Under the pieces are notes generated by a model. The model was not told the origin of the DNA. It saw only the letters and a program-made list of their open reading frames with translations, and searched no databases. Shown here piece after piece: positions 1,415 through 50,515 of a stretch of 64,000 nucleotides of DNA. The translations under genes and the position numbers were made by a program. This DNA is from Candidatus Thorarchaeota archaeon (lineage in GTDB: Archaea; Asgardarchaeota; Heimdallarchaeia; Hodarchaeales; Hodarchaeaceae): contig JBHLRO010000003.1 in NCBI GenBank assembly GCA_048882505.1, positions 15,157 through 79,156 of the forward strand, in the 5' to 3' direction. Each line of letters begins with the position of its first letter. The stretch's first letter is position 1.

Positions 1415-4036
1415 GTGAAGAGAATGCTACTAAACTCATTGATAGGGAAAAGGAAATATCTGGCCATTCTAGTTTGTATTTCCTATTATTTGTTTCTTAT
1501 GACTGTTCCTAGCTCTCTTGCTAACGGCGTAATGTCCGTAAAGCCTTCCATCAATGGTTTAGAGATTTCCAGTGACCCGATATATACTGAATCAAGCGGT
1601 TCCTCAACCGATCCCCGCTCTTCGAATGTTGAGACTCCTGAACATTACCTGATGACTCAAAAACTTCTAGGTGAAGCAGAGATATACTCAAACATCACTG
1701 TAGCGATAATATTAGACGATCTGAATTCGGTACTTGAAGGTAACCTGTCTATCGATTACTATAATCGGGATCCTATCAATATTAGTCGTATTCCCTTCCA
1801 CCTCTACCCTTCGGGAATGGCAAATGTTTCCCGAAAAGGAAGGATAGATATTCTTGGGGTAACCGACCAGACACACACGGCCCTCTTGTTTAATGTGCTA
1901 TCGGATCAACAACTTATGTGGGTGAACCTAACTGTCGATCTTTCGCCCTCTATGAGCACGAGAATAAATATAAAGTTCAATACCACCCTTCCTGACGGAT
2001 ATGACAGATCAAACTCCAATGGTTTTGATAGCAATCAATCACGCATCTTTACAGCCACGGGATTCTATCCTATCCCTTGTGTTTATGATGCTATTGATGG
2101 TTGGAACACTGATCCCTATATTAATGTTAGTGATCCGTTCTACTTTGATATGGCCAACTACGAACTCACTGCTACGGTTCCTACAGGATTTATCGTTGTA
2201 GCGACAGGCGACTTGATAGACCGAATGGCTCTGGGAAACTATGTCTCTTACGAATTTAAACCGATAGCTCCTGTAAGGGAGGTCGTATTCTCAACTTCCC
2301 GGTACTTCACCGTGGAAAGTACCATGAGCAACGGAATTAATGTTTCAAGCTTCTTTTTACCGCATAGTAGTGGATTATGGTCGGAAAGAGCCCTTGATGC
2401 TTCAATTAGGGCACTAACTCTTTTTAGTGATACATTTGGTACGTATCCTTATACTACATATAATATTGTCGAAGTGTACGGATTTTATAGCGGAATGGAG
2501 TACCCCTGTCTAGCTCAGATCTCTGAAGGAATTGCTGCACGTCATCCTGACGATACTAATTTTTGGTTTGAACTTACCCTCGCCCACGAGGCAGCTCATC
2601 AATGGTGGAGCCAAATAGTTGGAAACAATCAAATAGATTTTGGCCATCTCGATGAAGGATTGGCTAGCTGGTCAACGGATTACTATTTTGACTATTACAA
2701 TCCAAGCTGGAATTATTTTGAAGGCTATTGGGCCGTTAACGATGTTAGAACCTATTATATCACTAATAAGCAACCAGCGCGAGTCAATCAATCCGCCTAT
2801 GCCTTCATTGGAACCAATATGAGTTTTAGTTTTACAGCCTACACGAAGGCCCCCTTACTCTTCCAAAAACTTAGATCCACCCTCGGAAACACTGATTATA
2901 TTTCTGGATTAAAAAACTTCTATGACGCATATAAATTTGCAACCGCAACGCTGCCCTTACTCCAACAATCTTTTGAAGAAACAACAGGCAAGAATCTAGA
3001 TTGGTTCTTCCTTCCATGGTTTGACAATCCCTATCTCCCCAACTATTATGTTAGCAATGTAACTTATGACCCTAATCAAAATAATATGAGTTTCACGGTT
3101 ATGGACAGTAATGAAGATCTAAATAATTATTATTATTCCCAGAAACTCCCGATTTTAGTCTTGGATATTCGTTCATTCGGGATATTATATGGTGATCAAA
3201 TCTGGGTCAACGGTACAACGGATGTTGAGGTGAATCTGATTGAGGGAATGACTCCAGGGGAAATACGCCTTGTGTACGATTCTGAAGTTCTCGCGCAGAT
3301 GGTCTCGATCGAAACTCCCTTCGTATCATACAGTGACCCCAGTTGGTTCGACAGTCTGGGACGTCCTGATCCCAGTTGGCTTTCATTTGAAAAAGACGAT
3401 TGGATTGATTGGAACTATAGAGCTACTTTTACCGATATGAAGAACCAGATAGCTTCGCTTGACCAGAGTGGGATTTTTCATTGTAATATTCTGAAAATCA
3501 AACGACTCGCCAGAACAGTAGAAATAGAATCTGAATGGCTTTGGACCCCTTCTCATGGAATGTTTTCAGAGTTCACTGGTATATTTACCAGTTATCTTGA
3601 TGCTGAAAGCCATGTCACCCCCTATCATATGGCCTTGGTTTCTTTTTTTGTAGGTTCAGATTTTCAATTTACGCCAGCATGGCTGGATTCGATAAGGCCA
3701 CTTGTCGAAACGCTGAATTATGAAATACAAGATGACGGCCATAGACTTAATGCAAGGTACTTTAGTGGCGGAGATAATTTCACGGTTTTTGCAGATTATA
3801 ATTCTGATGGTATCTTGGCCAAAGTTGAAATAGCTTTCCATCCGCTTTATCCAGCTGGGAGTCAGGGCCCAGAATTACACGGGAAACTTACGCTAGTTTT
3901 ACGTAACAGCTCATTCATGGACTATAGACCCGTATTGGCCTCTCTCGTAGAATTGGCTCTTATCCCTTTCTCTGGAGCCGTCGTCATAGCATATGTGGCC
4001 TGGTACCTACAAAAACGGCGGAATAATCACTCCTAA
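1415..4036 (+). CDS. M1-family zinc aminopeptidase (gluzincin), secreted and membrane-anchored
   Basis: HEAAHQWW (HExxH) followed by LDEG glutamate about 20 residues later; N-terminal signal-peptide-like hydrophobic segment; many N-x-S/T sequons; C-terminal hydrophobic helix followed by basic tail QKRRNNHS. Confidence 0.8.
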   Translation: MKRMLLNSLIGKRKYLAILVCISYYLFLMTVPSSLANGVMSVKPSINGLEISSDPIYTESSGSSTDPRSSNVETPEHYLMTQKLLGEAEIYSNITVAIILDDLNSVLEGNLSIDYYNRDPINISRIPFHLYPSGMANVSRKGRIDILGVTDQTHTALLFNVLSDQQLMWVNLTVDLSPSMSTRINIKFNTTLPDGYDRSNSNGFDSNQSRIFTATGFYPIPCVYDAIDGWNTDPYINVSDPFYFDMANYELTATVPTGFIVVATGDLIDRMALGNYVSYEFKPIAPVREVVFSTSRYFTVESTMSNGINVSSFFLPHSSGLWSERALDASIRALTLFSDTFGTYPYTTYNIVEVYGFYSGMEYPCLAQISEGIAARHPDDTNFWFELTLAHEAAHQWWSQIVGNNQIDFGHLDEGLASWSTDYYFDYYNPSWNYFEGYWAVNDVRTYYITNKQPARVNQSAYAFIGTNMSFSFTAYTKAPLLFQKLRSTLGNTDYISGLKNFYDAYKFATATLPLLQQSFEETTGKNLDWFFLPWFDNPYLPNYYVSNVTYDPNQNNMSFTVMDSNEDLNNYYYSQKLPILVLDIRSFGILYGDQIWVNGTTDVEVNLIEGMTPGEIRLVYDSEVLAQMVSIETPFVSYSDPSWFDSLGRPDPSWLSFEKDDWIDWNYRATFTDMKNQIASLDQSGIFHCNILKIKRLARTVEIESEWLWTPSHGMFSEFTGIFTSYLDAESHVTPYHMALVSFFVGSDFQFTPAWLDSIRPLVETLNYEIQDDGHRLNARYFSGGDNFTVFADYNSDGILAKVEIAFHPLYPAGSQGPELHGKLTLVLRNSSFMDYRPVLASLVELALIPFSGAVVIAYVAWYLQKRRNNHS

Positions 4037-5309
4037 CGCCAGAGATGATAAGATGGATATGCACGCTGCAATATCAAAAGAAGTAGAAAACCCTGATCCT
4101 TCTAGGATCGCTGCCATTGACTTTGCTAGAGGTCTCGTGGTTATTTTAATGGCTCTCGATCATGCTTCGACCTATTGGAACTCAGGTCGGGTTTTCGGGG
4201 AATTCTGGTTTAGCAAACGACCCTTTCCGATGCCCGACCCATTGCAATTTCTAATACGATTGGTTTCTCATTGGTGTGCCCCAGCTTTTGTTTTTTTAGC
4301 AGGAACATCTATCATCCTTTATGAATCGTCACGAAGGAAACGAGATATCACAGAGAACGAAATCACAAACCACCTGGTAGCACGAGGATGCGTGCTCCTA
4401 ATAATCGAATGGACGCTGATCGGATGGTTATTTTCCGCTGCATCTGGTTATTTTGGAGTCCTAGCTGCGATAGGCGTTGGACTCATAATTTATGCTTTTG
4501 TCAGAAGGTTGAACACTAAAATCATTCTAGGGTTTTCTCTATTCCTTGTACTCTCCCCATTGTTTGCAGGATTTATTTGGAATCCGATATTGGAACCTGA
4601 TTCTCATCCTGTGAATTTCTCGATTTTGTACCCGGGTATTATTCTCGACCCTATTCTCTCAGTAAATCCCGAATTACAAACCTGGGTTCGTACAATTCTT
4701 CATTGGCCTCAGTTCCCATATGGTCTTTACCCTTTGGATCCATGGCTTGGCGTTATGGGACTAGGGATCGTTTTTGGCCGTTGGTTGGTAAAGCAACAAG
4801 AAGAAAAGAAAACGCCGCGCAATTTTTCAAAGCAGGTAGGACTCACGGGAGGGATAGCCTTGATTTTGTTCTTCTTTGTCCGGACACTCCTAGGGTTGCC
4901 CAGTACCTATTTCCCCATTTGGTCTACTGATGGGGTTCTCATCGAGAATGCTTTTATGATCCAGAATTATTTCTGGATGAGTAAATACCCCCCAAGCATT
5001 GTTTTTCTCCTTTGGACTTTGGGAGGAATGTGCCTCGTATTGGCAGTGGGATTTTATTTCCAGGAAAACGAAAAGTTTCAGAAGTGGGTTGGTGTAATCT
5101 TGCTATTCGGAAGCACAGCTTTGTTTTTCTATTGTACTCATTTATTAATCTACGGTGCGGTGCCTGTTGTTTTGGGATTGGTAAAATTGTTTTCTATTCA
5201 GGTCACCTTGCTTGTCTGGATCCTGGGTTTGTTAATCCTGTATCCTTTGTGTGTACAATTTAAGCAAATCAAAAGAAAATACCCCCAAACTTTGCTTAGA
5301 TACATTTAG
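3993..5309 (+). CDS. polytopic membrane protein, DUF1624/HGSNAT-like acyltransferase family (tentative)
   Basis: N-terminal motif RIAAIDFARGLVVILMALDH followed by about 10 hydrophobic helices. Overlaps the upstream gene by 44 nt, so the real start is probably the Met near 4053. Confidence 0.5.
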   Translation: MWPGTYKNGGIITPNARDDKMDMHAAISKEVENPDPSRIAAIDFARGLVVILMALDHASTYWNSGRVFGEFWFSKRPFPMPDPLQFLIRLVSHWCAPAFVFLAGTSIILYESSRRKRDITENEITNHLVARGCVLLIIEWTLIGWLFSAASGYFGVLAAIGVGLIIYAFVRRLNTKIILGFSLFLVLSPLFAGFIWNPILEPDSHPVNFSILYPGIILDPILSVNPELQTWVRTILHWPQFPYGLYPLDPWLGVMGLGIVFGRWLVKQQEEKKTPRNFSKQVGLTGGIALILFFFVRTLLGLPSTYFPIWSTDGVLIENAFMIQNYFWMSKYPPSIVFLLWTLGGMCLVLAVGFYFQENEKFQKWVGVILLFGSTALFFYCTHLLIYGAVPVVLGLVKLFSIQVTLLVWILGLLILYPLCVQFKQIKRKYPQTLLRYI

Positions 5310-5351: not shown

Positions 5352-6668
5352 CTAAAGAAAAGGAGATAGAATGATTAGATAAATCGTCCCAATTAGAAGA
5401 TGGAAAACACCTAAAACTCCACCGAGTCTAAAGAATTCAAAGAACGAGATTGGAGACCCTTCCCGATTGGATAAATTAATGGCTAGTATATTCGCTGGAC
5501 TGCCTATTGGCAAGATGTATCCACCTAGATTTACTGCAATCACTAATCCCCACCATTTTATATTATCGACAACCCCAATCACTTGTAGATCTGCAAAAAC
5601 TGGCGCCAAGGCGGCAGAAACTGGAATATTGTCCACAACTGCTGATATGGCTCCAATTCCAAATGATATGAGTGGTAAACTAAAAAACAGGTCTAGTTCA
5701 AAAAAAGGAGTCAGGATTTCGGCGAGGATTTCTAATATGCCAAGAATTTCAATCGATCCCACCAGTATGAATAATCCCATTATGAAGTAGATAGAAATCC
5801 ATTCGACATCACGAAAGATATCTTTTGGGTGCATTCCACTAAACAACAGAAGCCCGGCAGCAACTACAAGTGCTATTTCTGCTGCCTTAAGATGAAAAAT
5901 CGATCCAAAAATAAATCCTGAAACCAGAACAATCAATCCAAATATGACCGAATAAAAGGTCCTCCGATTTTCAACAAGAACTCCTGGATCCAAAAGAAAA
6001 ATCTCGGAGACAAGATCGGGAGAGGGATCTTGAAACTTCTTACGTGCATAGAAGATATAGAATGGCAACGCCGTTAGTAGTAGAATCAAACTAAGCGGCC
6101 CCATAACCAATATAAAGTCAAGAAAGGTGGCGCCGCTTTTATCTGCAAGAACTATATTTGGTATGCTTCCAACGAGGGAGGAGATCGAGGCAAAATTTGC
6201 TGTTATTGCTTCAATTGTTAGCATTGGGCGAAAATCAAAATCCAAGATTCGATAAATCTCTACGGTCAGTGGTGCTACGATCAACATCGTAGTGATTACA
6301 TCAAAGACGAAACTAATGATAAAAGTTACAAGAGTGAGCGATAATAGTAAAGTTCTTGGATTCCCTTGAGTAAATCGGACTATTATGATGCTAATATATT
6401 GAAAAAGGCCTGACCTGCTAGAGATGATGGTAATTATCATCATCGCAGTGATAAAGATTAGTGTATTCCATTCAACTCGGAAAATTATGGTTTCAAATTC
6501 GGTCGGGCGCCCTTCATATTGCCATTGGGTTATTATCAAAAGAACTGATATGGCCCCGGCACCCAATAGCGCTGAAATCGGTCGGTGGAGTTTTTCTGTT
6601 GAAATAAGTATATAGGTGCCAATAAAAATTGCGATACCTATGATCTGAACAAGTTCGAGTGCGGCCAT
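5352..6668 (-). CDS. ArsB/NhaD-superfamily ion transporter permease
   Basis: 438 aa, 10-12 predicted TM helices, internally duplicated architecture typical of the ArsB/NhaD/CitMHS ion transporter superfamily. Confidence 0.55.
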   Translation of the reverse strand: MAALELVQIIGIAIFIGTYILISTEKLHRPISALLGAGAISVLLIITQWQYEGRPTEFETIIFRVEWNTLIFITAMMIITIISSRSGLFQYISIIIVRFTQGNPRTLLLSLTLVTFIISFVFDVITTMLIVAPLTVEIYRILDFDFRPMLTIEAITANFASISSLVGSIPNIVLADKSGATFLDFILVMGPLSLILLLTALPFYIFYARKKFQDPSPDLVSEIFLLDPGVLVENRRTFYSVIFGLIVLVSGFIFGSIFHLKAAEIALVVAAGLLLFSGMHPKDIFRDVEWISIYFIMGLFILVGSIEILGILEILAEILTPFFELDLFFSLPLISFGIGAISAVVDNIPVSAALAPVFADLQVIGVVDNIKWWGLVIAVNLGGYILPIGSPANILAINLSNREGSPISFFEFFRLGGVLGVFHLLIGTIYLIILSPFL

Positions 6669-7036
6669 TAATGAAACTTCACGATCGGAGATATTGATGA
6701 ATATGATAGAATATTGGCTATTCTTTTTTCTCTAATTGCTTCACAAAGGACGTATTGAGGAGATCAAAGGCTCATAATATATCTTACTGGTGGACATCTG
6801 CATATCTGATACTCTTGCAGATCCCCTGAATCTTCAAGCTAATTCATGCGTAATCATTATACTTCTACGCAATTAAATTAATAAGATTGTTGTTGATCAA
6901 ACATAAGTGATAGATTCAAATTCAAGAGTATCAATTATTCTCAGCATATTCAAGATTAGTACTCCAAGTCAATTTTGACTCTCTAATAGGAAATTCGTAT
7001 AGCTACCACAAATTAAAAGCCAAATGGTGTCCGTGT

Positions 7037-7960
7037 TTGAAGGAACTTGATATAAAATCCAATATTGATTTGGTTATGGGAGAAATAGTAGATCTCATTC
7101 ATAATGCAGTGAAAGAAAGAAAATACGATGGGGTACTCATATGGTTTTCAGGATTTATCGATTCGACCGTAATCACCAAATTATCACTTGAGGCCCTGGA
7201 TGAGAATAAGATAAAGATCCTTCTCCGGTCAGAAAAGTTTTATGAAGATTACGACGAGATATGCAACAGTTCATTAGATTACCTAGGGATAAAGAAAGAG
7301 AATATTGAAGAGTGCGATGTGGATGAATTGTTGGATAAATTTGGCTCCGGACCCCTTGTCGAAGGATCGATTAGGCAGATTCCCCTGGTAAGCACCCGCT
7401 TGAGCTATTCCCTTCTGAAGGGTGCCTCGCTTGGTGAGATAAAGGATAAAACGTACGGATTTGTTGGCAAAGCATCCTCTGGGAGGGATGAATTGCTCAA
7501 TCGTATAATCGCACACAATAAACTTGGCTCCAGAATTCAAATGGCTTCGGCGTATTTGATTGCAGAGACAGAAAATCGACTATTGATCAGTACTCTCAAT
7601 AAAACCGAATTGATGACTGGTTTATTCACCAAATTTGGAAGGGGACAGTGCGCTGATCTAATGCCTCTTGGACATCTATATAGATCCCAAATATTGCAGT
7701 TGGCTGAATTTTTGGATGTTCCAGAAACCATCAGAAGTGCTGCTAAAGTCGACCTTCTTCCAGGGGTTGAGAACAAGTATTTGTATTTCTTTAATCTGCC
7801 AGCTTATGATGTTGACAAAGTTCTGGTATTATTAGAAGCTGGTCGATCGGTTCAGGACATTCAGAGCGAACTGAACCTTTCTATTGAAGAGATTGAGAGA
7901 ATTAGTACGTTTGTTGCCTCATCTGCGTATTCAAGAACTGCACCTTTGATGATTAAATAA
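7037..7960 (+). CDS. NAD+ synthetase (NadE)-like PP-loop protein with degenerate ATP-binding motif
   Basis: Core LMTGLFTKFGRGQCADLMPLGHLYRSQILQLAEFLDVPE matches the NadE signature (FTKYGDGG-AD-PL...K-Q), but the P-loop SGGxDS reads SGFIDS and GDGG reads GRGQ. Track start is TTG; first ATG at 7076. Confidence 0.6.
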   Translation: MKELDIKSNIDLVMGEIVDLIHNAVKERKYDGVLIWFSGFIDSTVITKLSLEALDENKIKILLRSEKFYEDYDEICNSSLDYLGIKKENIEECDVDELLDKFGSGPLVEGSIRQIPLVSTRLSYSLLKGASLGEIKDKTYGFVGKASSGRDELLNRIIAHNKLGSRIQMASAYLIAETENRLLISTLNKTELMTGLFTKFGRGQCADLMPLGHLYRSQILQLAEFLDVPETIRSAAKVDLLPGVENKYLYFFNLPAYDVDKVLVLLEAGRSVQDIQSELNLSIEEIERISTFVASSAYSRTAPLMIK

Positions 7961-8124
7961 ACAAAATCCTTACGGTAAATTTACCTCGAAATTTCAAAGA
8001 GATTCAGTTAAGGCATTTTCAAGAATAACACTTGCCATTCGGTGAATGGATATAAAAAACTCGCCCATGATAGCTTTTGAAAATAAGTAAATTCTAGAGC
8101 AACTATTGTATGTTCGTTTGAATA

Positions 8125-9084
8125 TTATATCTCGGGAATTAAGGGAACTGCTCTAGCGTACTTGGATACGTCGTAATAATACCTGATCTTCTGTATCGCA
8201 TCAAAATGGACCCCAGTCTCTTGATGGATTTCTTCCATGGAATAACCTCCGACCTCAAGTCTTAACAAAACGCGGTCTACCTCCCTATATGATAGATCAA
8301 AGAAAAATCTATAACTTGTTGGTATCTTCTCGACTCTTTCATCGAGATATTTGTTTAAGTTTAGATATTCCGCCAATTGAACGACCTGTGTTTTATAAAG
8401 CGCAGCTAAAGGGAGAAAATCGGCCGCATGATAGGTTCCGAATTTTGTAAAGAGCCCCAAGAGCCATTCTGTTTTATTGACATGACCAATATAAGATTTA
8501 TTTTCTATTTCAGCCAGAAGGAAAGAGAGAAGCATATTTAGACGTATCCGGCTTTTATAATGGGCTATTGACTGACGAATAAACTTCTCCCTTTTGGTGC
8601 CTGGCCGTTTTGAAGGAGGGCTGAATGTTTCCAACTCAAAATCATCGCGGGCCATGCTCTTAAACAAGATATAGCTTAAATTATAATTTAATATCGGAAG
8701 ACTGTCAGTAGCTGAACGAGCTACCATCATTCCGGTTTTTTCTGAGTAAACCCTGCCGATATCCCGAATTATTTTCTCTATATTGATGAAAACAAGACTT
8801 TCGTTTGGTAGGTTAAGATATTGTTTTATCAACTCTGTGTCCCTCTCCCTCGTTGGCTTTCTACTACTGAATCTGCCTTGAGTCACGATCAGACTGATAT
8901 TTTCCGCCCCTACGGCCGCAGATGCCAATTTAACGTTAACAAGAGACTCAACATCGTCTCTAAAAAGTAGAATTAGGCCTTCAATGTCTCTTTCTTCCAA
9001 GTAGGAACGGAGGAATTCGACAATTTTCTCTTCAACAGAACTTGGGTCGATTTGTAACCTTTCATCCAAATCCATTTCGTTCAT
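8125..9084 (-). CDS. NAD+ synthetase (NadE)-like PP-loop paralog, strongly degenerate motifs
   Basis: Core EWLLGLFTKFGTYHAADFLPLAALYKTQVVQLAEYLNL is paralogous to 7037..7960; the P-loop position reads LLFRDDVES instead of SGGxDS; GDGG reads GTYH. Confidence 0.55.
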   Translation of the reverse strand: MNEMDLDERLQIDPSSVEEKIVEFLRSYLEERDIEGLILLFRDDVESLVNVKLASAAVGAENISLIVTQGRFSSRKPTRERDTELIKQYLNLPNESLVFINIEKIIRDIGRVYSEKTGMMVARSATDSLPILNYNLSYILFKSMARDDFELETFSPPSKRPGTKREKFIRQSIAHYKSRIRLNMLLSFLLAEIENKSYIGHVNKTEWLLGLFTKFGTYHAADFLPLAALYKTQVVQLAEYLNLNKYLDERVEKIPTSYRFFFDLSYREVDRVLLRLEVGGYSMEEIHQETGVHFDAIQKIRYYYDVSKYARAVPLIPEI

Positions 9085-9137
9085 AGGGTAATACTAACGC
9101 GCTTATGATAATTACCCTCTTGACGCGAATTCAAGGT

Positions 9138-10217
9138 TTAGATGGGGACGAAGGTTTCGTCTTTGGAAATTGACTTAATCAGGTTCACGACCAAATTAAC
9201 GCAATTTTCCACGTCATCTAAACTGATAACCTCACTAGCAGTGTGCATATAGCGATTCGGAATACTTACTAGGGCTGTAGCTGCTCCAACTAATTGAAGA
9301 GCATTGGCATCTGTACCTGTTCCCCTATGTGCAGCTTTTCTTTGATAGGGTATATTAAGTTCTTCAGCGAGCTTAATGATCTTTTGAAATAAGTTGGGGT
9401 TTATATTCGGACCTACCGAGATAATTGGGCCCTGACCAAGCTTGGTATCGCCCACTAGCTTTTTCTTGATTTCTGGTGCATCCGCCGCATGTCCGACATC
9501 AAAAGCAATCCCTACCTCTGGTCTTATACTTCTTGCTGCCACTGTGGCACCACGCATCCCGATCTCTTCTTGTACTGAACTTACTCCATATACTCCTGCA
9601 AAGAACTGCTTATCACTGGAAAGTTCTTTCATTATTTCCATTGTGATAAAGGCACCGATCGCGTCATCAAAGCCAGCCGAGGCTGCATAGTTATGGTCTC
9701 CAAGGCGTTGGTATCCGTGATCAAAAACCGCAAAATCACCGATTTCAACCTTTGATTCTGCTTCCTCCTTATTATGACATCCAATGTCTATGAAGATCTT
9801 CTCGATGTCAGGAGATTTTTTGCGTTCTTCTGGTTTTATTATGTGAATTGGCTTCCTGCCAATAACTCCAGGTATCGCGCCAGTTTTTCCCCAAACTTTC
9901 ACTCTTTTACCTGCTAATGTGGACGGGTCAAATCCACCCAACGGTAAGAACCAAAGGAATCCATTTTTATCGATATAACTAATTTGGAACCCGATCTGGT
10001 CGATATGTCCTACAAGCATAACCTTGGTTGGTGATTCTGGATTGATCACTGCGATTAGATTCCCAACTCGATCTCCGTAAAGCTGGTCTAAATTCGCTTC
10101 CGACTGCAGATAATCCTTGATCAAGCGTTGGGCGGAAAATTCGTATCCCGTGGCCCTCGGTGTTGAGAGCAATTGTTTCAGAAACCCCTCATTTATGGTG
10201 TATGCCAATATGATCAC
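9138..10217 (-). CDS. M42-family metallo-aminopeptidase (TET/FrvX/CelM-like)
   Basis: 359 aa with VGHIDQIGF, FDDAIGA, QEEIGMRGA motifs typical of M42 glutamyl/TET aminopeptidases. Confidence 0.75.
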   Translation of the reverse strand: MIILAYTINEGFLKQLLSTPRATGYEFSAQRLIKDYLQSEANLDQLYGDRVGNLIAVINPESPTKVMLVGHIDQIGFQISYIDKNGFLWFLPLGGFDPSTLAGKRVKVWGKTGAIPGVIGRKPIHIIKPEERKKSPDIEKIFIDIGCHNKEEAESKVEIGDFAVFDHGYQRLGDHNYAASAGFDDAIGAFITMEIMKELSSDKQFFAGVYGVSSVQEEIGMRGATVAARSIRPEVGIAFDVGHAADAPEIKKKLVGDTKLGQGPIISVGPNINPNLFQKIIKLAEELNIPYQRKAAHRGTGTDANALQLVGAATALVSIPNRYMHTASEVISLDDVENCVNLVVNLIKSISKDETFVPI

Positions 10218-10283: not shown

Positions 10284-10925
10284 TTACGGCAGACGAAGCG
10301 GGAGTGCATTCGATTCCCTGTTCTGAGATTGTAATTTCTGTTTATGAATCAAACTGTTAATTATTTCAGTTGAAAGTAATCTAAACGTCTCGTCGATATT
10401 GACATTCTCCTTGGAGGATGTTTCAACATAATGAATGGAAAAACCATGTGTTTCCTGAACTAATCGCGATAATCGTTTGGCGTACTCAATCCCCTGCGCT
10501 GTAGAGACCTGTCCATGATATGATATCATCCCGCGAAGATCGCACTTCGCACCCACCAGCATTAATGGGCGCTCCCCTTGGCCGTTCAGTTTCCAAAATG
10601 AGCTAATCCATTCTTCAACATTCATGAATGAATTAGGGTTTGTTATGTCAAAAAAGCATAACGCCGCGACTGCTCCTCGATAATAGAGGTTGCTTACAAC
10701 CTTAAACCGTGGTTGGCCAGCTAGGTCCCAAATCTGATATTTAATTAGATATTCTGTTTTTGTTGGCCCGTATTCGATTTTGACTTCTTTTGCGGCAAAA
10801 TCCGCTCCCAAAGTCATTAAGTATTGAGCTTGGAATGTATCACCCAACCAAACTCTTCTGAACGAACTTTTACCTACTCCACCATCTCCAACCAATACAA
10901 TTTTCGCTCGAAGAACTTTTACCAT
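10284..10925 (-). CDS. Ras/Rab-like small GTPase
   Basis: G1 GDGGVGKSS, switch I Thr (TLGADF), G3 WDLAGQ, G4 GAKCD (NKxD-type), G5 ETSSK; 213 aa. Confidence 0.8.
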   Translation of the reverse strand: MVKVLRAKIVLVGDGGVGKSSFRRVWLGDTFQAQYLMTLGADFAAKEVKIEYGPTKTEYLIKYQIWDLAGQPRFKVVSNLYYRGAVAALCFFDITNPNSFMNVEEWISSFWKLNGQGERPLMLVGAKCDLRGMISYHGQVSTAQGIEYAKRLSRLVQETHGFSIHYVETSSKENVNIDETFRLLSTEIINSLIHKQKLQSQNRESNALPLRLP

Positions 10926-11351
10926 CAGTAACCCTCATTTTAAACCAGAAAAATTGCTTTTTATTTACTCATCTTTCCGATCTTACTCAAGTTCATAGTT
11001 CCGGATCAATGGCCTATAATAGGCTTCCCATATGTACCTTAAGTGGTTTAATTCATTCACGATCGGATATTTCAGGTTTGCAAATGACTTTTTATTTCAA
11101 ATTTATCGTTCCTACTCGTTTTTTTTTCTCCTCCCGATAATTTGGAAAGAGAAAAAGGTGAAAATAAGGTAAAATCTGGCTTTTTCTCCTCACATTAGGG
11201 GGATTATGATCATTCTGATCATGAATGGAGTGTGAACTGCTGCAAGATTTGTGGGTCAAGGTCGGGCTTCCGTTCTTGAATTTTCGATCCCTAAAGTACT
11301 GAACAATCAAAAACCAGCAGAAATTGGAGACCCATTACCATTTCATGGATT

Positions 11352-12431
11352 TCAAACTTCATCTAATCCCCCCCATGAACTGACAAATTCCCACAAGGTC
11401 TTATAGAGATTTGCAAAGACAGTTAGGTAAGCTACTTCGAATCCATGACTGTTCTTCCGAATATGCCCAATACAAGCGGTTTGAGGACTAGCACCAATGC
11501 TCCCTACTTGACCTGCATCACTCCCACTTGTAGTATAGACAAGGTGTTGAAGCTCAGTACCTACATTTTTCGCCGCATCAGACAATGCCTGGTTCAACTT
11601 GGGGCTGTAGAAATATCCCCGATCACGAACCCTAATTCCAGGTCTATCATCTAGCTCCGTAGGTGATTCAGATGCGATTGGACAACCGTCCACAGCAATG
11701 AAGTAGGTCGGAGTTAGTGATTGTGCCAAGTGTTTTGCTCCAAAGCAACCGATCTCCTCTCTGGTCGTAAATGCAATTATAAGATTCACAACTGGAGTAA
11801 CGTTCTTTGTTTTTAGGGTTTTTAATATTTGGAGTAGAATAGCGACCCCTATTTTATCATCGAATGTCCACGCCCCTATCATTGGATTTGATTCTTCTCC
11901 AAAAAATATGGGCCCTCTTTCCGATTGACTCAGAGTAATCAGAGTTCCAGGTTTAACGCCATAACCTTTCAAACTTTCGGGAGGCAATCCAGTGATAACA
12001 GCAGTTTCTCTCCACTCTAATTTCTGTGTACCACCTGCGGCGTGTCCTGATCCCATCGCCGTAACACCAGAAATCGTCGCATTATCACCAAAGACGTCAA
12101 CTGGACGTTCCCCATATTTCCATGTTAATGATCCTCCTATCCTCTCAACTCCTAGTGTACCATCACCATTAATTTTTGTTACCATTAATCCGATTTCATC
12201 TGTATGTGATGCCAAACAACAAGTTTCCTCACTTTGCTTCTTGCCTGGTATTTGAACATAGACATTCCCTGCCGAATCCTTCTGGGGATTATATCCCCAC
12301 TCATTACACTTTCGGTAAATGTGATCAGCTATCTTGTCTTCCATTCCCGAAGGAGAAGGAATAGTAAGCAATTCGGTGAATTGTTGGATTATTGCGCTCT
12401 GCTTGATCTGCTCATATCTACTAGATTCCAT
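11352..12431 (-). CDS. M42-family metallo-aminopeptidase paralog
   Basis: 359 aa; SHTDEIGLMV, FDDKIGVA, TTREEIGCFGA motifs paralogous to 9138..10217. Confidence 0.7.
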   Translation of the reverse strand: MESSRYEQIKQSAIIQQFTELLTIPSPSGMEDKIADHIYRKCNEWGYNPQKDSAGNVYVQIPGKKQSEETCCLASHTDEIGLMVTKINGDGTLGVERIGGSLTWKYGERPVDVFGDNATISGVTAMGSGHAAGGTQKLEWRETAVITGLPPESLKGYGVKPGTLITLSQSERGPIFFGEESNPMIGAWTFDDKIGVAILLQILKTLKTKNVTPVVNLIIAFTTREEIGCFGAKHLAQSLTPTYFIAVDGCPIASESPTELDDRPGIRVRDRGYFYSPKLNQALSDAAKNVGTELQHLVYTTSGSDAGQVGSIGASPQTACIGHIRKNSHGFEVAYLTVFANLYKTLWEFVSSWGGLDEV

Positions 12432-16161: not shown

Positions 16162-16902
16162 TTATCTGACGTTTGTTTTCAATTTTTTTATATGAAATAG
16201 GCTACAAGAAATTTGGTCGTATTTTCCATCTTCTTCATCAATACTCATGCACTCTTCAAAGGAACGTAACGCACTCCCATAATCCCCCTGATAAAAATAT
16301 GTGACCCCGATCACATGCCAAGAGTAACTTTCCAGATACCGAAATCCTGCCTCCTTTGCCAGTGCAAACGCCCGAGCCAAATATGATATCGATTGATCCA
16401 GCTCACCCCGTGACCGATGCATGAGCCCCAAGGGTGAAAGAGACTCCGCAATCTGAAATTCATCCTCCACCTCCTTCGCAGCTGCTAGCGATTTACGTGA
16501 AAACACTAGAGCTTGCTTGAGATCTCCTAAGGTCCAACAAACCCTGGCTTTTACATCATATAAGAGACATTCCCATTCCTTTCCATCTTGTATCGTGCCC
16601 AGTAAATCCTGTCCCTTTTCAAGCAACTCAGCGGCTTCAGTAACCTTCCCAAGACGGTAGAAGGCATAACTCTTCATCACTACTGCCCCCAGTTCGTGGT
16701 ATCTATCCCTTACCACTTTATTCTTTTGCTGAACTACATTTGCCACGGACACTGCCTGCTCGTACTCTTCCTGCAGAATGTAAATCCGACTTTTGAGTAG
16801 TAATCCCAGTGATCCCGCTTTTGCGTCTAATCCTTCAATCTGTGCCAGGGTTTCCTCATATTTGGCCTGATAGATTAGGTCACGGATAGTCTGAATCCTC
16901 AT
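16162..16902 (-). CDS. TPR-repeat protein
   Basis: 246 aa with repeated 34-residue helical units (W/L-G-Y-A-F-P pattern); motif-level call. Confidence 0.55.
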   Translation of the reverse strand: MRIQTIRDLIYQAKYEETLAQIEGLDAKAGSLGLLLKSRIYILQEEYEQAVSVANVVQQKNKVVRDRYHELGAVVMKSYAFYRLGKVTEAAELLEKGQDLLGTIQDGKEWECLLYDVKARVCWTLGDLKQALVFSRKSLAAAKEVEDEFQIAESLSPLGLMHRSRGELDQSISYLARAFALAKEAGFRYLESYSWHVIGVTYFYQGDYGSALRSFEECMSIDEEDGKYDQISCSLFHIKKLKTNVR

Positions 16903-19367: not shown

Positions 19368-19895
19368 CTAGTCAACCCCTTCTTCTCTTCGCCGCGTAGC
19401 CTCATCCCCTGTTCCCGTGACGGGTTGTTTAACAGGTTTTGTCTTCTTTCTAGAGGCCCCACTCTCTTGTGGTCTCTCATGTCGTGGTACTGGACTGGAG
19501 GTCGATTCCATTCCTGGTTCCCCCTCTATCCCTGGTGGATGGTCCAATCTTACCTGTAAACGGGCTTTTAGCTGCTCCATTAGCTCCCTAAGATGAGTAT
19601 CAGAGGGGTGTATACCCTGTGCCTGTTGAAGAAAAAACGTCGCCTTGAATAGCTCATTCTCCTTTACAAACATCTCAACTAATCGCACCCACGTCCCTAC
19701 ATTTCTTGGATCCCATTGGACTGCCTCCATGAACGTTTGAAAGGCCGCCCGCTCATTTCTCTCTTCTTTCATAATGTGTGCCCGCAAGATCCAAAAATCC
19801 ACCAGAAGTGAATCGTTCCCATTACTTAACTGCCTCAGCGTAGCAATTATCGTTGAATCCACTTTCGGACTCTCTCCCGCCAACACCTTTTCCAC
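19368..19895 (-). CDS. helical (TPR-like) protein with disordered Pro/Glu/basic-rich C-terminus
   Basis: 175 aa; N-terminal helical repeats, C-terminal low-complexity tail; terminates with TAG at 19370..19368; G+C about 50%, above window background. Confidence 0.4.
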   Translation of the reverse strand: MEKVLAGESPKVDSTIIATLRQLSNGNDSLLVDFWILRAHIMKEERNERAAFQTFMEAVQWDPRNVGTWVRLVEMFVKENELFKATFFLQQAQGIHPSDTHLRELMEQLKARLQVRLDHPPGIEGEPGMESTSSPVPRHERPQESGASRKKTKPVKQPVTGTGDEATRRREEGVD

Positions 19896-20189: not shown

Positions 20190-20837
20190 TCACCCATGGC
20201 TGCGGACAATGTCTTTCATTCGCGCTACATATTCGTTCAATCGGACGGCCTTCATCCGCTCGTGGATAGATGCTCCTTTTGCAACTAATTCTTCCGATTT
20301 TTCCAAAATTTCCTTGAGTGTAGTTTGATCATCCATCACCTTTTCCGCTACCTTCTTCAAATTGTGTTCTTTTGTGATTCCCTCGGCCTGCTCCAGAAGA
20401 GTATCTGTTCGTGTTATATTTCCTCGGATCAAGGCAAATCGTGAAAGAAGAAGTAACGCCTCCACCGCCGAGGAGAACGATTTCTGTTCCTGAGCAATCC
20501 TGTGAATTTCGGCCAACAAATCCTCGGCATCAGTTAACACCTCTGGTTCTCCATAGAGCGATAATTCGTCCATTAATAATTCACACAGATTCACCATGGC
20601 GTAGATCGAGAGATCGTGCAATATTATCTCTTCTTGCATGATTTCTTCAAGTAATCGTTGCGCCGCCGTCTTATCTTTTAAGCGACAACCGTTTTTCCGC
20701 ACCAAGGCATCTGCTAGCTGCTGGCGTAAATCGATATACCTGTTGTTAGACCCCTCGCTGCTCTTCAATTCCTCCAGTTTTTTTAGATAAACCTGCGCTT
20801 CATCTCTTTTTCCCATCTCCAGACTAGTGAGAACCAT
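20190..20837 (-). CDS. helical repeat protein homologous to the C-terminal third of TPR protein 46500..48062
   Basis: NLCELLMDELSLYGEPEVL...ALLLLSRFALIRGNITRTDTLLEQAEGITKEHNLKKV aligns with NLGELLVFELKATGNEEVF...YLLQSRLALLELDIENAEKLLTQAEVLSQEKGLKKL of the 520-aa protein. Confidence 0.5.
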   Translation of the reverse strand: MVLTSLEMGKRDEAQVYLKKLEELKSSEGSNNRYIDLRQQLADALVRKNGCRLKDKTAAQRLLEEIMQEEIILHDLSIYAMVNLCELLMDELSLYGEPEVLTDAEDLLAEIHRIAQEQKSFSSAVEALLLLSRFALIRGNITRTDTLLEQAEGITKEHNLKKVAEKVMDDQTTLKEILEKSEELVAKGASIHERMKAVRLNEYVARMKDIVRSHG

Positions 20838-33207: not shown

Positions 33208-34026
33208 ATGACATCATCAGAAAATAATCTTGGAAATTATCATTTTACAGAATTTCCCATCAATCGACAGATCCTTAGTGACCTCTATGATGAATTTCTA
33301 AAAAAACATTATTCCATAGGTTACCTTGAAGTGACTGTTTCCAAAGCTTTGGAATTGATAAACAAATTGACAAAGAAGACTGGGGAAAAAATTTCTTTCA
33401 CGGCTTGGGTTGTTAAGTGCATCAGTGATGCTATCCTTCAGTTTCCAGAGTTTAACTCTTATCGAAAGGGGAGAAACAGGCTAGTAACGTTTGAGGACAT
33501 TGATATTATCGTTATGGTGGAACGTCAGTTAGTTGAAAAATTCATTCCAGTTCCTTATTCGATTCGAAAAACTACAAAGAAAGATTTACTAGCCATTTCA
33601 AGGGAAATTAGGACAGCACAAAATATGGAAGTAACTGAGAAAAATCAGCTTCTTGATCAAGGGATCCTTACCAGATTATATCCGCTTATTCCAGGGATTA
33701 TTAAACGACGCCTGATTAGACGTATTCTTCGAAACCCTTTTTCTATAAAAAAACAAGGAGGGTTAATCGTAGTTACCTCGGTTGGTATGTTCACTAATAC
33801 TCGTGGATGGGTAGGTGGATTCGGCGGGATAACTACCCTCAATTTTGCAATTGGTGGGATCACTCAAAAACTCGTTAAATCTGGTGATTCTATCAAGGAA
33901 GAACAATGTTTACAGATGACCATATCTCTCGACCACGATATTATTGATGGGGGTCCTGCGGCTCGTTTTTCAGCATATCTAGTCGATTTACTTGAAAAGG
34001 CTAGTGGTTTGACTGGACTGATGTAA
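33208..34026 (+). CDS. stand-alone 2-oxoacid dehydrogenase E2-type acyltransferase catalytic domain protein (CAT-like fold)
   Basis: C-terminal GGLIVVTSVGMF...ISLDHDIIDGGPAARF matches the E2 catalytic core (SNLGMFG...DHRxxDG) with catalytic His/Asp present; no lipoyl or E3-binding domains. Confidence 0.7.
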   Translation: MTSSENNLGNYHFTEFPINRQILSDLYDEFLKKHYSIGYLEVTVSKALELINKLTKKTGEKISFTAWVVKCISDAILQFPEFNSYRKGRNRLVTFEDIDIIVMVERQLVEKFIPVPYSIRKTTKKDLLAISREIRTAQNMEVTEKNQLLDQGILTRLYPLIPGIIKRRLIRRILRNPFSIKKQGGLIVVTSVGMFTNTRGWVGGFGGITTLNFAIGGITQKLVKSGDSIKEEQCLQMTISLDHDIIDGGPAARFSAYLVDLLEKASGLTGLM

Positions 34027-35425: not shown

Positions 35426-36244
35426 ATGGAGTCGCTAACCGATTTGGAAACAAGAATGAATGTTTCTCCTTCTCTACCGTCTAAATCAGAGACGGAGCAA
35501 TTTTATCAGCATGCTATGTCAAGTGGCGACTTTTTTGTAGCAATTGCTGATAAAAAGATTATCGGATTCAGCGGGGCTATTATCCGAGACAGATTATGGT
35601 TTTTATCGGCCTTTTGGGTTCTCCCTTCTTTTCAAAAAAGCGGTATTGGCCTTTCTCTTCTTGAACGCGTTTTTGAAAAAGGTATCAGTCGTGGTGCATC
35701 AGTTTTCTGTGTTTATTCTTCTAGTGATTTTCCAGCATTAGCATCTTACATGAAAATGGGTATGTTTCCTGGCTACCCAGTTTTTTATTTTGAGGGAATT
35801 CCGAAAATAGCATCCTTTTCGAGAGCTAATTCACATCGATCTGAGGAATTACAGGAGGAAGTAGCAACAGAACTAGATTTAGAAATTCGAGGGGTTAATA
35901 GATTGACGGATCATAGATATTGGAAATTGTTGGGATCAAGGGCGGTTCAAATTGAAATAGAAGGTAAAATCGGAGGATACTACTATGTTAGAAAAGGATT
36001 CATTGGTCCGCTGGTAAGTAAACAGTCCAAAGACATTGAATTATTACTTAATTTAGCTATGAAAGATGCTTTGGATTTAACTCCGAATAAGATAATCAAA
36101 TTGAGGGTTCCAGGTATCAATCATCATGCCCTAAAATGGATTCTGAAAACTGGACTAAAAATCAGGTCGACATCGCACTTTTTGACATCAAAAGAGTTTG
36201 GAAAACTTGCTTGTTATCTTCCTTCAGATCCTGGCCTATATTGA
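35426..36244 (+). CDS. GNAT-family N-acetyltransferase
   Basis: Motif A-like FQKSGIGLSLLERVF; 272 aa with C-terminal extension. Confidence 0.5.
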   Translation: MESLTDLETRMNVSPSLPSKSETEQFYQHAMSSGDFFVAIADKKIIGFSGAIIRDRLWFLSAFWVLPSFQKSGIGLSLLERVFEKGISRGASVFCVYSSSDFPALASYMKMGMFPGYPVFYFEGIPKIASFSRANSHRSEELQEEVATELDLEIRGVNRLTDHRYWKLLGSRAVQIEIEGKIGGYYYVRKGFIGPLVSKQSKDIELLLNLAMKDALDLTPNKIIKLRVPGINHHALKWILKTGLKIRSTSHFLTSKEFGKLACYLPSDPGLY

Positions 36245-36261: not shown

Positions 36262-37128
36262 TTGATAGATATGAAGTTGAAGGGATTTGAAAAGTTACAG
36301 CAGAAATTGCCGGGATATAGCGGCAAGAGGTTTGTCATTATACCACTCATCGGGTTTGTCTCTTTTATTTCCAGCTTTTTCATTTTGCTACTGAGCTATT
36401 GGATGCCCACCCTTCTTCCCGATAATGAACTACTTGGTCTGGCTGAACCAATATTACCTATTGCTGGTCAGGTGATCATATTAACCATTGGGTTTTTCCT
36501 AATCGCGCGAGTATGGAATAGAAGACGGTTACTACTCAAAAAACATAAGGAATTAGCATATGAGCGAGGAGTCATTTCAGGATTCATTGGCGTACCTTTG
36601 GTACTTGCAACGGCATTCCACAGTTTGTTCCCGATAGCTTTTTCGTGGGAACCAATAAATCCAACTACTGCTCAAATGTTCTTTTCACCATTCAGATCTA
36701 ACTTGATTTTATCGATTATTTTATTACTTATTGGGTCCATCCTAGTTCTAATTGGATTATTGACCTTTCGGAGAGCAATTTTGACTTTTGGAATCGATTA
36801 TATGGCGGTTATATACGTTTATTACCCAGAAGAGTCAGAACTTCAGGATCATCAAATTTACTCTATCCTGAGGCATCCAACGTATTTTGCTATCATTTTG
36901 ACTGCCGTAGGTGGATGGCTGGTAAACTTCTCGGTGTATTCATTCATTGCGATGTTGCTCGTTATCCTCGGTATACTCATCCATCTTCGGTTTGTTGAAG
37001 AAAAGGAGCTTTTAGAACGGTTTGAATCATTTCGAGAATATAGACAACAGGTTCCAGCATTTATCATCAAACCTAGTCAAATTGTACCTTTTTTCAGATT
37101 TATCTTAGGCCAGGAAAACGCTCAATAG
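36262..37128 (+). CDS. ICMT/PEMT-like membrane methyltransferase (isoprenylcysteine carboxyl methyltransferase family)
   Basis: C-terminal RHPTYFA...VEEKELLERFESFREYRQQVP matches the ICMT signature (RHPxY...EE..L...FG..Y..Y); several N-terminal TM helices. Confidence 0.55.
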   Translation: MIDMKLKGFEKLQQKLPGYSGKRFVIIPLIGFVSFISSFFILLLSYWMPTLLPDNELLGLAEPILPIAGQVIILTIGFFLIARVWNRRRLLLKKHKELAYERGVISGFIGVPLVLATAFHSLFPIAFSWEPINPTTAQMFFSPFRSNLILSIILLLIGSILVLIGLLTFRRAILTFGIDYMAVIYVYYPEESELQDHQIYSILRHPTYFAIILTAVGGWLVNFSVYSFIAMLLVILGILIHLRFVEEKELLERFESFREYRQQVPAFIIKPSQIVPFFRFILGQENAQ

Positions 37129-38767: not shown

Positions 38768-39586
38768 ATGTCACCATCAAAAGACAATCTTGGAAATTAC
38801 CATCTAACCGAGTTTCCCACCAATCGCCAAATCCTTAGTGACCTTTATGATGAATTTCTAAAGAAGCATTATTCCATTGGTTACATTGAGGTGACTGTTT
38901 CCAAGGCTAACGAATTGATAAACAAGTTCCTAGAGAAGACAGGAGAAAAAATTTCTTTCACCGCTTGGATCGTTAAGTGTATCAGTGATGCCGTCGTTCA
39001 GTTCCCAGAATTTAATTCTTATCGAAAGGAGAGAAACAAGCTTGTCACGTTTGAGGATATTGATATTATTGTTATGGTGGAACAGCAGTTACCTGACAAA
39101 GTTGTTCCGATCCCTTATTCTATTCGAAAAACTACAAATAAAAATCTATTAACCATTTCTAAAGAAATTAGGACAACACAAAGTATGGAAGTAACTGAGG
39201 AACATCAGCTACTTGATCAGGGAATCCTTATCAAATTATATCCATTAATTCCAGCATTTATTCGACAACGACTGATAAGACGTAAGATTCGAGATCCTTT
39301 TACCATTAAAAAACAGGGAGGATTAATTGTGGTCACCTCCGTTGGTATGTTTATCAATACTCGGGGGTGGGTGGGAGGATTTGGCGGGATAACTACCCTA
39401 AATTTTGTAATTGGTGGAATCACGAAAAAATTCGTTAAATCTGGTGATTCGATCAAGGAAGAACAACTTCTACAGATGAGCATTTATCTTGACCATGATA
39501 TTATTGATGGGGCTCCAACGGCTCGTTTTTCGGCGTATCTAGTCGATTTACTGGAGAATGCAAATGGTTTAACTGAACTGATCTAG
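38768..39586 (+). CDS. stand-alone E2-type acyltransferase catalytic domain protein, paralog of 33208..34026
   Basis: 272 aa, collinear with 33208..34026 over its full length (GGLIVVTSVGMF...YLDHDIIDGAPTARF). Confidence 0.7.
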   Translation: MSPSKDNLGNYHLTEFPTNRQILSDLYDEFLKKHYSIGYIEVTVSKANELINKFLEKTGEKISFTAWIVKCISDAVVQFPEFNSYRKERNKLVTFEDIDIIVMVEQQLPDKVVPIPYSIRKTTNKNLLTISKEIRTTQSMEVTEEHQLLDQGILIKLYPLIPAFIRQRLIRRKIRDPFTIKKQGGLIVVTSVGMFINTRGWVGGFGGITTLNFVIGGITKKFVKSGDSIKEEQLLQMSIYLDHDIIDGAPTARFSAYLVDLLENANGLTELI

Positions 39587-39863: not shown

Positions 39864-40547
39864 TTATTTCTGTGTCTTAATGCCAAATGGTACCAATAAT
39901 GGTGTGTGTATCTTATATTCAAGGTAGTTCTCACCAAAGCGAATTTCCAGCTCTTTTTCTTCATAAACTTTTAGAAAAAATATCCAGACCGGTACCACAA
40001 GAGTAAGAACCCACAATAGAAACCCCGCAGATTGGAAAAATAACGCTAAGGAGACTAAAAATAGGAGAATGGCTAAGACCATGGGATTGCGCGTTCGAGC
40101 ATACAACCAATCGCTTACAAGATATCTACTATTAGCAATCAAAGCGAATGGAGCCCCTAATCCTCTTAGTGCCAAATAAACCACTGTAAGCAAAGTGAAA
40201 ACACCGCTTATACTAAGAAGAATAAAACTTATCTCCTTAGGAAATGGTATAATAACTCCCTTCCAACTTTCAGCAGACAAAATAGCTCGTATAATGCCTG
40301 CTCCAAGACAAATCATGATAGAAAAATGAATTGTCATATTTAACCAGAAAGTGTGTTTAGCTGTTGGATATTTATTGAGGATGAATCGCCCTACAGAAGA
40401 AATTGGAGCAACAGCAACCACACCCCCTATTATTATGAATGCGTCAGTCATAAGATCAAATTGCTGGTCGAAAAACCATCTCCAAATTATGAAGACAAGT
40501 ATCAGGCTTAGAAATCGAATTATAGACGAGATTATAGGAGATCTCAT
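39864..40547 (-). CDS. ICMT/PEMT-like membrane methyltransferase paralog
   Basis: RTRNPMVLAILLF...VYEEKELEIRFGENYLEYKIHTP matches the ICMT C-terminal signature; 5-6 TM helices. Confidence 0.55.
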   Translation of the reverse strand: MRSPIISSIIRFLSLILVFIIWRWFFDQQFDLMTDAFIIIGGVVAVAPISSVGRFILNKYPTAKHTFWLNMTIHFSIMICLGAGIIRAILSAESWKGVIIPFPKEISFILLSISGVFTLLTVVYLALRGLGAPFALIANSRYLVSDWLYARTRNPMVLAILLFLVSLALFFQSAGFLLWVLTLVVPVWIFFLKVYEEKELEIRFGENYLEYKIHTPLLVPFGIKTQK

Positions 40548-50429: not shown

Positions 50430-50515
50430 TCGTTTATGCAGTCTATTTTATTCTGGAAGACGGTAGAACCATCCTTTCCGAAACTTACCAGAATCCTGAT
50501 AATATACCGAATGAG

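Follow-up and report, generated by a model that had tools for sequence, protein, structure and literature searches.

A minus-strand gene in a 64,000-nucleotide stretch of archaeal DNA, at positions 10284 to 10925 of that stretch, very probably encodes a stand-alone, single-domain Asgard RasL (Rab-like) GTPase of a Heimdallarchaeia/Hodarchaeales-type genome, with a GTP/GDP switch as its most likely role. The stretch, which we call the window, covers positions 15,157 to 79,156 of contig JBHLRO010000003.1 (assembly GCA_048882505.1) and was deposited as Candidatus Thorarchaeota archaeon. The GTPase is ordinary, and its class has been described well; an identical protein is annotated in GenBank, and one Asgard relative has been crystallized (Tran et al. 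2024). It falls within an ortholog clade with a noncanonical G4 motif, and it is this clade, together with the relationship of the protein to eukaryotic Rabs and its lack of a conserved genomic partner, that we discuss below.

Family identity of the GTPase

The open reading frame (ORF) is real, intact, and under purifying selection, with a ratio of nonsynonymous to synonymous substitution rates (dN/dS) of 0.078 against a 94%-identical ortholog in a sister metagenome-assembled genome (MAG), at the locus that we call L001. A Shine-Dalgarno-like GAGGG lies 6 nt 5' of the ATG, and the N terminus, MVKVLRAKIVLVGDGG, is the same as those of the homologs.

Sequence comparison supports the initial annotation of a Ras/Rab-like small GTPase. 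Pfam assigns the protein to Ras (E 6e-39) and Roc (E 4e-27), and NCBIfam finds only the generic small_GTP domain, TIGR00231 (E 9e-19). In the PDB, the 60 sequences that match best are those of eukaryotic Rabs (Rab11, Rab1, Rab10, Rab8, Sec4, Rab7, Rab3, and Rab35) and the Thorarchaeota Rab 7EZB (E 7e-26). Against reference sequences, phmmer gives 95 bits for Rab11A, 94 for Rab1A, 89 for Rab7A, 74 for Rab6A, and 70 for Rab5A, followed by Ran (61), HRas (55), RhoA (42), and Rac1 (36); Arf1, Sar1, and MglA references yield no match. These references, like those of the tree described below, were entered by hand, and the phmmer scores reproduce those of the PDB search.

The predicted fold leads to the same families. 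An AlphaFold2 model built from 109 homologs (predicted local distance difference test [pLDDT], 88.4; predicted template modeling [pTM] score, 0.85) has the canonical strand and helix order of a G domain. When it is compared with the PDB by Foldseek, the top 50 matches are all Rabs (target-normalized TM scores of 0.72 to 0.87), and a probability of 1.00 is reached for ~1,900 PDB GTPase chains.

The features that define the Ras superfamily are present: a G1 of the form GxxxxGK[S/T], the Thr of switch I, DxxG followed by Gln, G4 and G5 motifs, and a six-stranded G-domain fold. We counted the G4 motif as [N/T]KxD although its first residue deviates from the canonical Asn. The set of motifs had been called complete from G1 to G5, and all five can indeed be located, except that Ala replaces the Asn of G4, with the Lys and Asp kept; the residues invariant over the 109 homologs are given motif by motif in Table 1. 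In switch I, LGADF is RabF1-like and aligns with the IGVDF/IGVEF of Rabs in the PDB sequence matches. Switch I has no Arg, nor does the stretch from residue 28 to residue 40, and the protein thus lacks an intrinsic arginine finger of the MglA or Thor-Rab type. WDLAGQPRF is present in 99 of 120 homologs, and the Pro72 that follows the catalytic Gln is common to most Asgard relatives. At G5, ETSAK is found in 90 of the 120 homologs and ETSSK, the form seen here, in 7. Helix alpha5 spans residues 177 to 206 in the model, the tail ends in ...HKQKLQSQNRESNALPLRLP, and the sole cysteines of the protein are C90 and C128.

Membership in Asgard RasL is indicated by grouping with Asgard Ras-like proteins and by a closer relation to Rab, Ras, Rho, and Ran, with Arf, Rag, and MglA more distant. 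We considered and rejected the Arf/ArfR family: the N terminus, MVKVLRAK, enters beta1 directly, the Pfam Arf score is below its curated cutoff (20.5 against 22.3 bits), and phmmer finds neither Arf1 nor Sar1. A search of 50% representative sequences conveys how large the superfamily is (42,454 matches for E<=1e-3, of which 83 reach E<=1e-30), and the ortholog clade shrinks to one or two representatives in that search.

Table 1. Positions of the GTPase gene, its motifs, and its immediate neighbors in the window
Feature	Positions	Strand	Basis
GTPase gene, Asgard RasL / Rab-like, single-domain, 213 aa	10284..10925	-	ORF call, ATG start
G1 / P-loop GDGGVGKS, residues 13-20	10866..10889	-	G13, G18, and K19 invariant in 109-sequence alignment
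Switch I / G2 YLMTLGADF, residues 35-43; Thr38 as Mg2+ ligand	10797..10823	-	T38 and G40 invariant
G3 / switch II DLAGQ, residues 67-71; catalytic Gln71, then Pro72	10713..10727	-	Q71 invariant, P72 in at least 90%
G4 AKCD, residues 126-129; Ala for the Asn of NKxD	10539..10550	-	Reverse complement of atcgcacttcgc; K127 and D129 invariant
G5 ETSSK, residues 168-172	10410..10424	-	Reverse complement of cttggaggatgtttc; E168 and S170 invariant
Extended C-terminal helix alpha5 and short Cys-free tail, residues 179-213 and stop	10284..10391	-	AlphaFold2 secondary structure
Upstream intergenic region, 426 bp, promoter/5' region	10926..11351	-	No Rfam match; conserved only with 94%-identical sister MAG
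Downstream M42 (TET-type) aminopeptidase	9138..10217	-	Pfam Peptidase_M42 E 1e-84; 66 bp from GTPase gene
Upstream M42-family peptidase	11352..12431	-	Pfam Peptidase_M42 E 7e-51; 426 bp from GTPase gene

Resemblance to Rabs and placement as RasL

The GTPase resembles a Rab but is no member of the Rab family, and we file it as Asgard RasL because it has no C-terminal Cys, is not nested in the Rabs, and belongs with proteins for which a RasL placement has been published. A bona fide Rab, that is, an ortholog of a eukaryotic Rab subfamily and a lipid-anchored marker of internal membranes, is suggested by the GenBank name, 'Rab family GTPase,' by the best sequence and fold matches (Rab11, Rab1, Rab8, Rab7, and Sec4), and by the RabF-like LGADF, KYQIW, YYRGA, and FFDIT. 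By the RabF1 to F5 motif set of Pereira-Leal and Seabra, as applied by Tran et al., three or four motifs out of five can be recognized: LGADF compares with IGVDF, KYQIW with KLQIW, and LCFFDIT with LVYDIT, YYRGA is exact, and RFKVVS is a weak counterpart of RFRSIT. Eukaryotic Rabs further share the switch regions, WD.AGQ.RF, YYRGA as RabF4, and the hydrophobic triad, and remain the best match at ~95 bits.

These likenesses stop short of orthology, and we regard a true Rab as very unlikely. A prenylation-type Cys terminus (CC, CXC, CCXX, or CAAX) is absent from the protein, and C-terminal Cys is missing from its clade; of 120 homologs, only 2 carry a Cys among their final 6 residues; one is a truncated fragment ending in an internal G4 motif, and neither has such a terminus. 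REP and Rab geranylgeranyltransferase (RabGGTase) homologs were not found in Asgard archaea (Tran et al. 2024, PMC10933270), and the ~60 ORFs of the window include no REP/GDI or RabGGTase gene. In a rough neighbor-joining (NJ) tree, made with our own script, the clade of the query has 100% bootstrap support and lies among Asgard paralogs, separated by a 73% split from eukaryotic Rab, Ras, Rho, and Ran. The phylogenetic check suggested by the initial annotation does not, in this rough form, nest the protein within Rab. This agrees with the report that no Asgard sequence is specifically sister to Rabs and that such proteins are filed as 'RasL' (Vargova et al. 2024/2025, doi 10.1101/2024.02.28.582541). 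Other differences from eukaryotic Rabs are DLAGQP in place of the Rab DTAGQE, AKCD in place of NKxD, and ~15 extra residues between G4 and G5.

With the Asgard RasL proteins (Klinger et al. 2016; Vargova et al.) the GTPase shares a single-domain Ras-superfamily G domain, homologs confined to Asgard archaea, greatest closeness to Rab, Ras, Ran, and Rho and distance from Arf and MglA, the lack of a lipidation motif, and many paralogs per genome. It differs from them in the features of its clade, namely, [A/S/T]KxD for NKxD, a longer beta2-beta3 hairpin and alpha4, and signature residues of its own. A second comparison is with Thor-Rab (Thorarchaeota SMTZ1-45 KXH73347.1; PDB 7EZB/7EZD/7EZE), likewise an Asgard single-domain protein that carries RabF-like motifs and lacks C-terminal cysteines. 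Experiments have shown that it binds both GDP and GTPgammaS and that, like Rab11B, it hydrolyzes GTP slowly (Tran et al. 2024, PMC10933270). Its switch I includes Arg37, which corresponds in position to the arginine finger of MglA and has no counterpart in our GTPase, and the match between the two is limited to residues 5 to 168 of the latter, whose C-terminal helix and tail are longer.

Two window genes belong to the PEMT/ICMT-like (isoprenylcysteine carboxyl methyltransferase) family (36262-37128 on the plus strand and 39864-40547 on the minus strand), and Rce1-like (CPBP) protease genes lie a few kilobases 5' of two GTPase orthologs (1940-2146 at locus L004 and 3652-4737 at L010). They recall eukaryotic CAAX processing, a resemblance that is probably coincidental because these GTPases have no CAAX Cys.

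A conserved noncanonical G4 motif in the ortholog clade

With a single exception, the 97 best-scoring homologs of a 120-sequence alignment have Ala, Ser, or Thr as the first G4 residue (as do 97 sequences overall), while more distant Asgard paralogs in the same alignment have Asn. Two insertions accompany this change. The beta2-beta3 segment is 6 residues longer in the [A/S/T]KxD clade (21 against 15), and the spacing between G4 and G5 is 39 residues in the clade, 34 in the N-type paralogs, and 24 in Rab/Ras; in the AlphaFold2 model the extra G4-G5 residues extend the loop before alpha4 and alpha4 itself (H142-160). The [A/S/T]KxD motif and the two insertions together mark a clade with 100% bootstrap support in the NJ tree, and W26, C90, F91, N96, L113, and E187 are further signature residues. 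We found no paper in the literature that names this subclade.

Rac1 and Cdc42 are functional GTPases with a natural Thr at the first G4 position. Rac/Cdc42 share with the query this small, non-Asn first residue (TKLD / TQID) and a similar spacing from G4 to G5 (37 against 39), but their overall similarity to it is weaker (36 to 42 bits). A Rho-insert reading of the long spacing was rejected: the model shows the extra residues lengthening the alpha4 region with no separate insert helix, and Rho similarity is weak.

Could the loss of the G4 Asn mark a degenerate, or pseudo-, GTPase? The AKCD that stands in place of NKxD and the two insertions relative to Rabs would fit such a history, which we nevertheless judge to have little chance of being correct. 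The substitution is clade-wide in 97 homologs; the Lys and Asp of G4 are invariant, as are all the remaining catalytic and binding residues, and the example of Rac1 and Cdc42 argues that a Thr at this position is compatible with function. Because dN/dS is as low as 0.078 relative to the 94%-identical ortholog, AKCD appears from the sequence comparisons to be a conserved state of a functional gene and not a sign of decay.

Asgard origin of the contig

GenBank holds an identical protein, MFW9854254.1, as 'MAG: Rab family GTPase [Candidatus Thorarchaeota archaeon],' and a 94%-identical copy, MFW9777736.1, comes from a 'Candidatus Heimdallarchaeota archaeon' MAG. Homologs at 50 to 68% identity are nearly all from Hodarchaeales, Heimdallarchaeota, and Promethearchaeota MAGs. 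For three window proteins the nearest relatives, 94%, 87%, and 91% identical, are all in a 'Heimdallarchaeota' MAG, and further homologs are mostly from Hodarchaeales; the window also encodes a RIO kinase along with other genes of archaeal type. A search of the window for tRNA and rRNA as taxonomic markers found none. The contig is Asgard and most probably affiliated with Heimdallarchaeia/Hodarchaeales. The GenBank label 'Candidatus Thorarchaeota archaeon' is probably wrong, since the nearest relatives are Heimdallarchaeota and the further homologs mostly Hodarchaeales.

The view of the GTPase as an Asgard hallmark, put forward in the initial annotation, is borne out by the identical protein and by all close homologs, which are from Asgard MAGs, and the relatives of the window proteins exclude a bacterial contig. 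A GTPase of the bacterial MglA/Rup type on bacterial DNA is accordingly a negligible prospect, with nothing found in its favor, and we rejected it: phmmer gives no MglA match, the identical contig and all close homologs of the three window proteins are from Asgard MAGs, and the window has the RIO kinase and other archaeal-type genes mentioned above. The motifs also differ, as G3 is DLAGQ with an Asp, whereas MglA has TxxGQ with none, and switch I is without Arg. No MglB/roadblock gene adjoins the GTPase gene, and none lies within 39 kb of it.

Genomic neighborhood and the M42 peptidases

As first annotated, the GTPase gene lies between two M42 peptidase paralogs on its own strand, a placement that the Pfam scores and distances in Table 1 uphold. 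The two peptidases are only 24% identical by BLASTP and are therefore ancient paralogs and not products of recent duplication. The M42 gene is adjoined by divergent NAD-synthase-like (PF02540) paralogs at 7037-7960 (plus strand) and 8125-9084 (minus strand), a pair that is kept in L001.

To place this arrangement, we compared 10 ortholog loci, the window and nine that were fetched, by all-against-all BLASTP of their ORFs. The GTPase is the sole gene common to 10/10 loci, and an adjoining M42 gene occurs in the window and in L001 but at no other locus. Neighbors at the other loci include major facilitator superfamily transporters; thiolase, acyl-CoA dehydrogenase, and electron transfer flavoprotein genes; a rhomboid and a CPBP (Rce1-like) protease; M14 and S9 peptidases; and toxin-antitoxin genes. 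Even L001 differs from the window, in that its GTPase gene and upstream M42 gene are separated by two genes of ~457 aa (6499-7869 and 8055-9431) that are absent from the window and have no Pfam match; this two-gene difference points to a recent indel.

The upstream intergenic regions of the orthologs are long (~240 to 600 bp, most >350 bp). An alignment of six of them revealed no common sequence, conservation of the window region being limited to the 94%-identical sister MAG. An Rfam search of the window returned nothing. A 72-aa ORF inside the 426-bp upstream gap is probably spurious and had no match in a Pfam search. The GTPase gene is best read as monocistronic, with its regulators encoded elsewhere.

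Functional coupling to the flanking aminopeptidases, either in an operon or in a nutrient-sensing module such as a Rag-like switch reporting peptide or amino acid supply, would account for several aspects of the locus. The three genes are on one strand with only 66 bp to the downstream M42 gene, the order of GTPase, M42, and NAD-synthase genes is retained in L001, the ortholog at L005 is followed by M14 and S9 peptidases, and the window is peptidase rich (M1, M20, M42, and a Pab87-type enzyme). We still hold coupling to be decidedly improbable. The adjacency is confined to the window and its sister MAG, the eight other ortholog loci have unrelated neighbors, and in L001 two unrelated genes split the upstream M42 gene from the GTPase gene. 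The 426-bp upstream gap and a TATA-like ATTTAAAGATA, read by eye in the 66-bp spacer, suggest separate transcription, and the protein is Rab/Ras-like and not Rag-like, with a Gtr1_RagA score of 17.8 bits that is below the curated cutoff. The M42-flanked position is lineage specific, with no demonstrable functional meaning.

Longin proteins and other genes of the window

Among the ~60 window ORFs, Pfam matches none to regulators of the roadblock, longin, TBC, DENN, or Sec7 type. The search for partners resembling GTPase-activating proteins (GAPs) or guanine nucleotide exchange factors (GEFs), which the initial annotation had advised, was therefore unsuccessful, and its observation that no roadblock or longin gene stands beside the GTPase gene holds. 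It had also pointed to roadblock-like motifs at 50516 and 61313. The ORFs at these positions have no Pfam match; they are real, paralogous, and domain bearing, but the domain is of the longin type and not Roadblock_LC7.

The ORF at 61313-62593 encodes a hypothetical protein of 426 aa that is specific to Heimdall/Hodarchaeales, with 28 homologs. Its AlphaFold2 model (pLDDT 77.5) has an N-terminal beta-beta-alpha-beta-beta-beta-alpha (longin) domain, and a Foldseek search puts four NPRL2 chains on top (E 3e-6); they rank first because the winged-helix-rich C-terminal part aligns too. A link to NPRL2 at the sequence level was rejected, the hhalign probability being 0.2% and a PDB profile search empty. 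For Asgard archaea, longins of the NPRL2-like and FLCN/SMCR8 types have already been described (Liu et al. preprint; Traffic 2025).

The second ORF, at 50426-51064 on the plus strand, encodes 212 aa and is a paralog of the N-terminal half of the 426-aa protein (hhalign E 6.7e-6). Its homologs are 209 to 214 aa long and all start with MIVYAVY, which would place the true start at about 50426 and not at 50516. In the window this codon is a CTG that is preceded by GGAGAGGAAGG and shares nucleotides with the stop of a ParA/MinD-type ATPase gene (49527-50429); a noncanonical start, a point mutation, and a sequencing error are all conceivable. The GenBank product for this locus is truncated to 166 aa and is without beta1-beta2 and helix alpha1. 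Both proteins are longin and winged-helix paralogs encoded 40 to 50 kb from the GTPase gene, and it is possible that they regulate the GTPase, though unlinked.

Elsewhere in the window, three 272-aa ORFs lie within 6.4 kb on the plus strand (33208-34026, 35426-36244, and 38768-39586). Two resemble 2-oxoacid_dh acyltransferases, and the third is a GNAT. DUF6326, SRAP, PEMT-like, and aminotransferase genes lie among them, and the arrangement suggests a small-molecule modification cluster that arose by local duplication. The 64 kb also encode four TPR-repeat proteins (16162-16902, 20190-20837, 44411-45289, and 46500-48062, on the minus strand), and a weak ChAPs (Chs5p-Arf1p-binding) match of one TPR-repeat protein, at 19368-19895, falls exactly at the Pfam cutoff.

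Proposed mechanism

The GTPase would act as a GTP/GDP molecular switch. In this capacity the P-loop GDGGVGKS, Thr38, and Asp67 would hold the nucleotide and Mg2+, Gln71 would place the attacking water for hydrolysis, and Lys127 and Asp129 would confer guanine specificity, with switches I and II and the Rab-type hydrophobic triad (F43, W66, and Y81/82) as the expected GTP-dependent partner surface. As switch I has no Arg, fast hydrolysis should require a GAP acting in trans and encoded elsewhere, most plausibly an Asgard longin/roadblock-domain protein. Because the C terminus has no Cys, the protein would be unprenylated and either cytosolic or merely peripheral at the membrane. By analogy with Ras N116 mutants and the TKxD of Rac/Cdc42, a first G4 residue of Ala, Ser, or Thr probably makes nucleotide binding looser and intrinsic exchange faster.

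A more far-reaching proposal is that the [A/S/T]KxD clade constitutes a Heimdallarchaeia-wide ortholog with altered nucleotide handling, either fast cycling and GEF independent or of low nucleotide affinity like IFT27/RabL-type proteins, and that its longer beta2-beta3 hairpin and alpha4 provide an interface for Heimdall-specific longin and winged-helix proteins such as those encoded at 50426-51064 and 61313-62593. We consider this combination unlikely. If it were true, a clade with a longin interface would be an archaeal forerunner of the GATOR1/folliculin-type modules of longin GAPs and GTPases.

Some points count against our assignment of the protein as an Asgard RasL GTP/GDP switch. The case for the protein and its clade is drawn from sequence and a predicted model, and the effect ascribed to the G4 Asn-to-Ala change is carried over from other GTPases. 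The NJ tree is rough, and of its hand-entered references three were cross-checked only indirectly, through near-identical bit scores. No GAP, GEF, or effector partner was found for the GTPase, the longin proteins of the window being 40 to 50 kb away.

Significance

Rab/Ras-type small GTPases belong to the eukaryotic signature proteins by which Asgard archaea are linked to the beginnings of the eukaryotic endomembrane system. Asgard genomes carry dozens of their genes, which account for as much as ~2% of a genome (Eme et al. 2023). The GTPase described here is one more example; it confirms the window as Asgard (Heimdall-group) DNA and introduces no new principle. Two points are of modest value. 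As the gene has no conserved genomic partner, its regulators are not to be found from gene neighborhoods. In addition, a well-conserved ortholog group of Heimdallarchaeia/Hodarchaeales can be defined by a noncanonical G4 motif and offers a sensible target for the biochemistry of nucleotide exchange.

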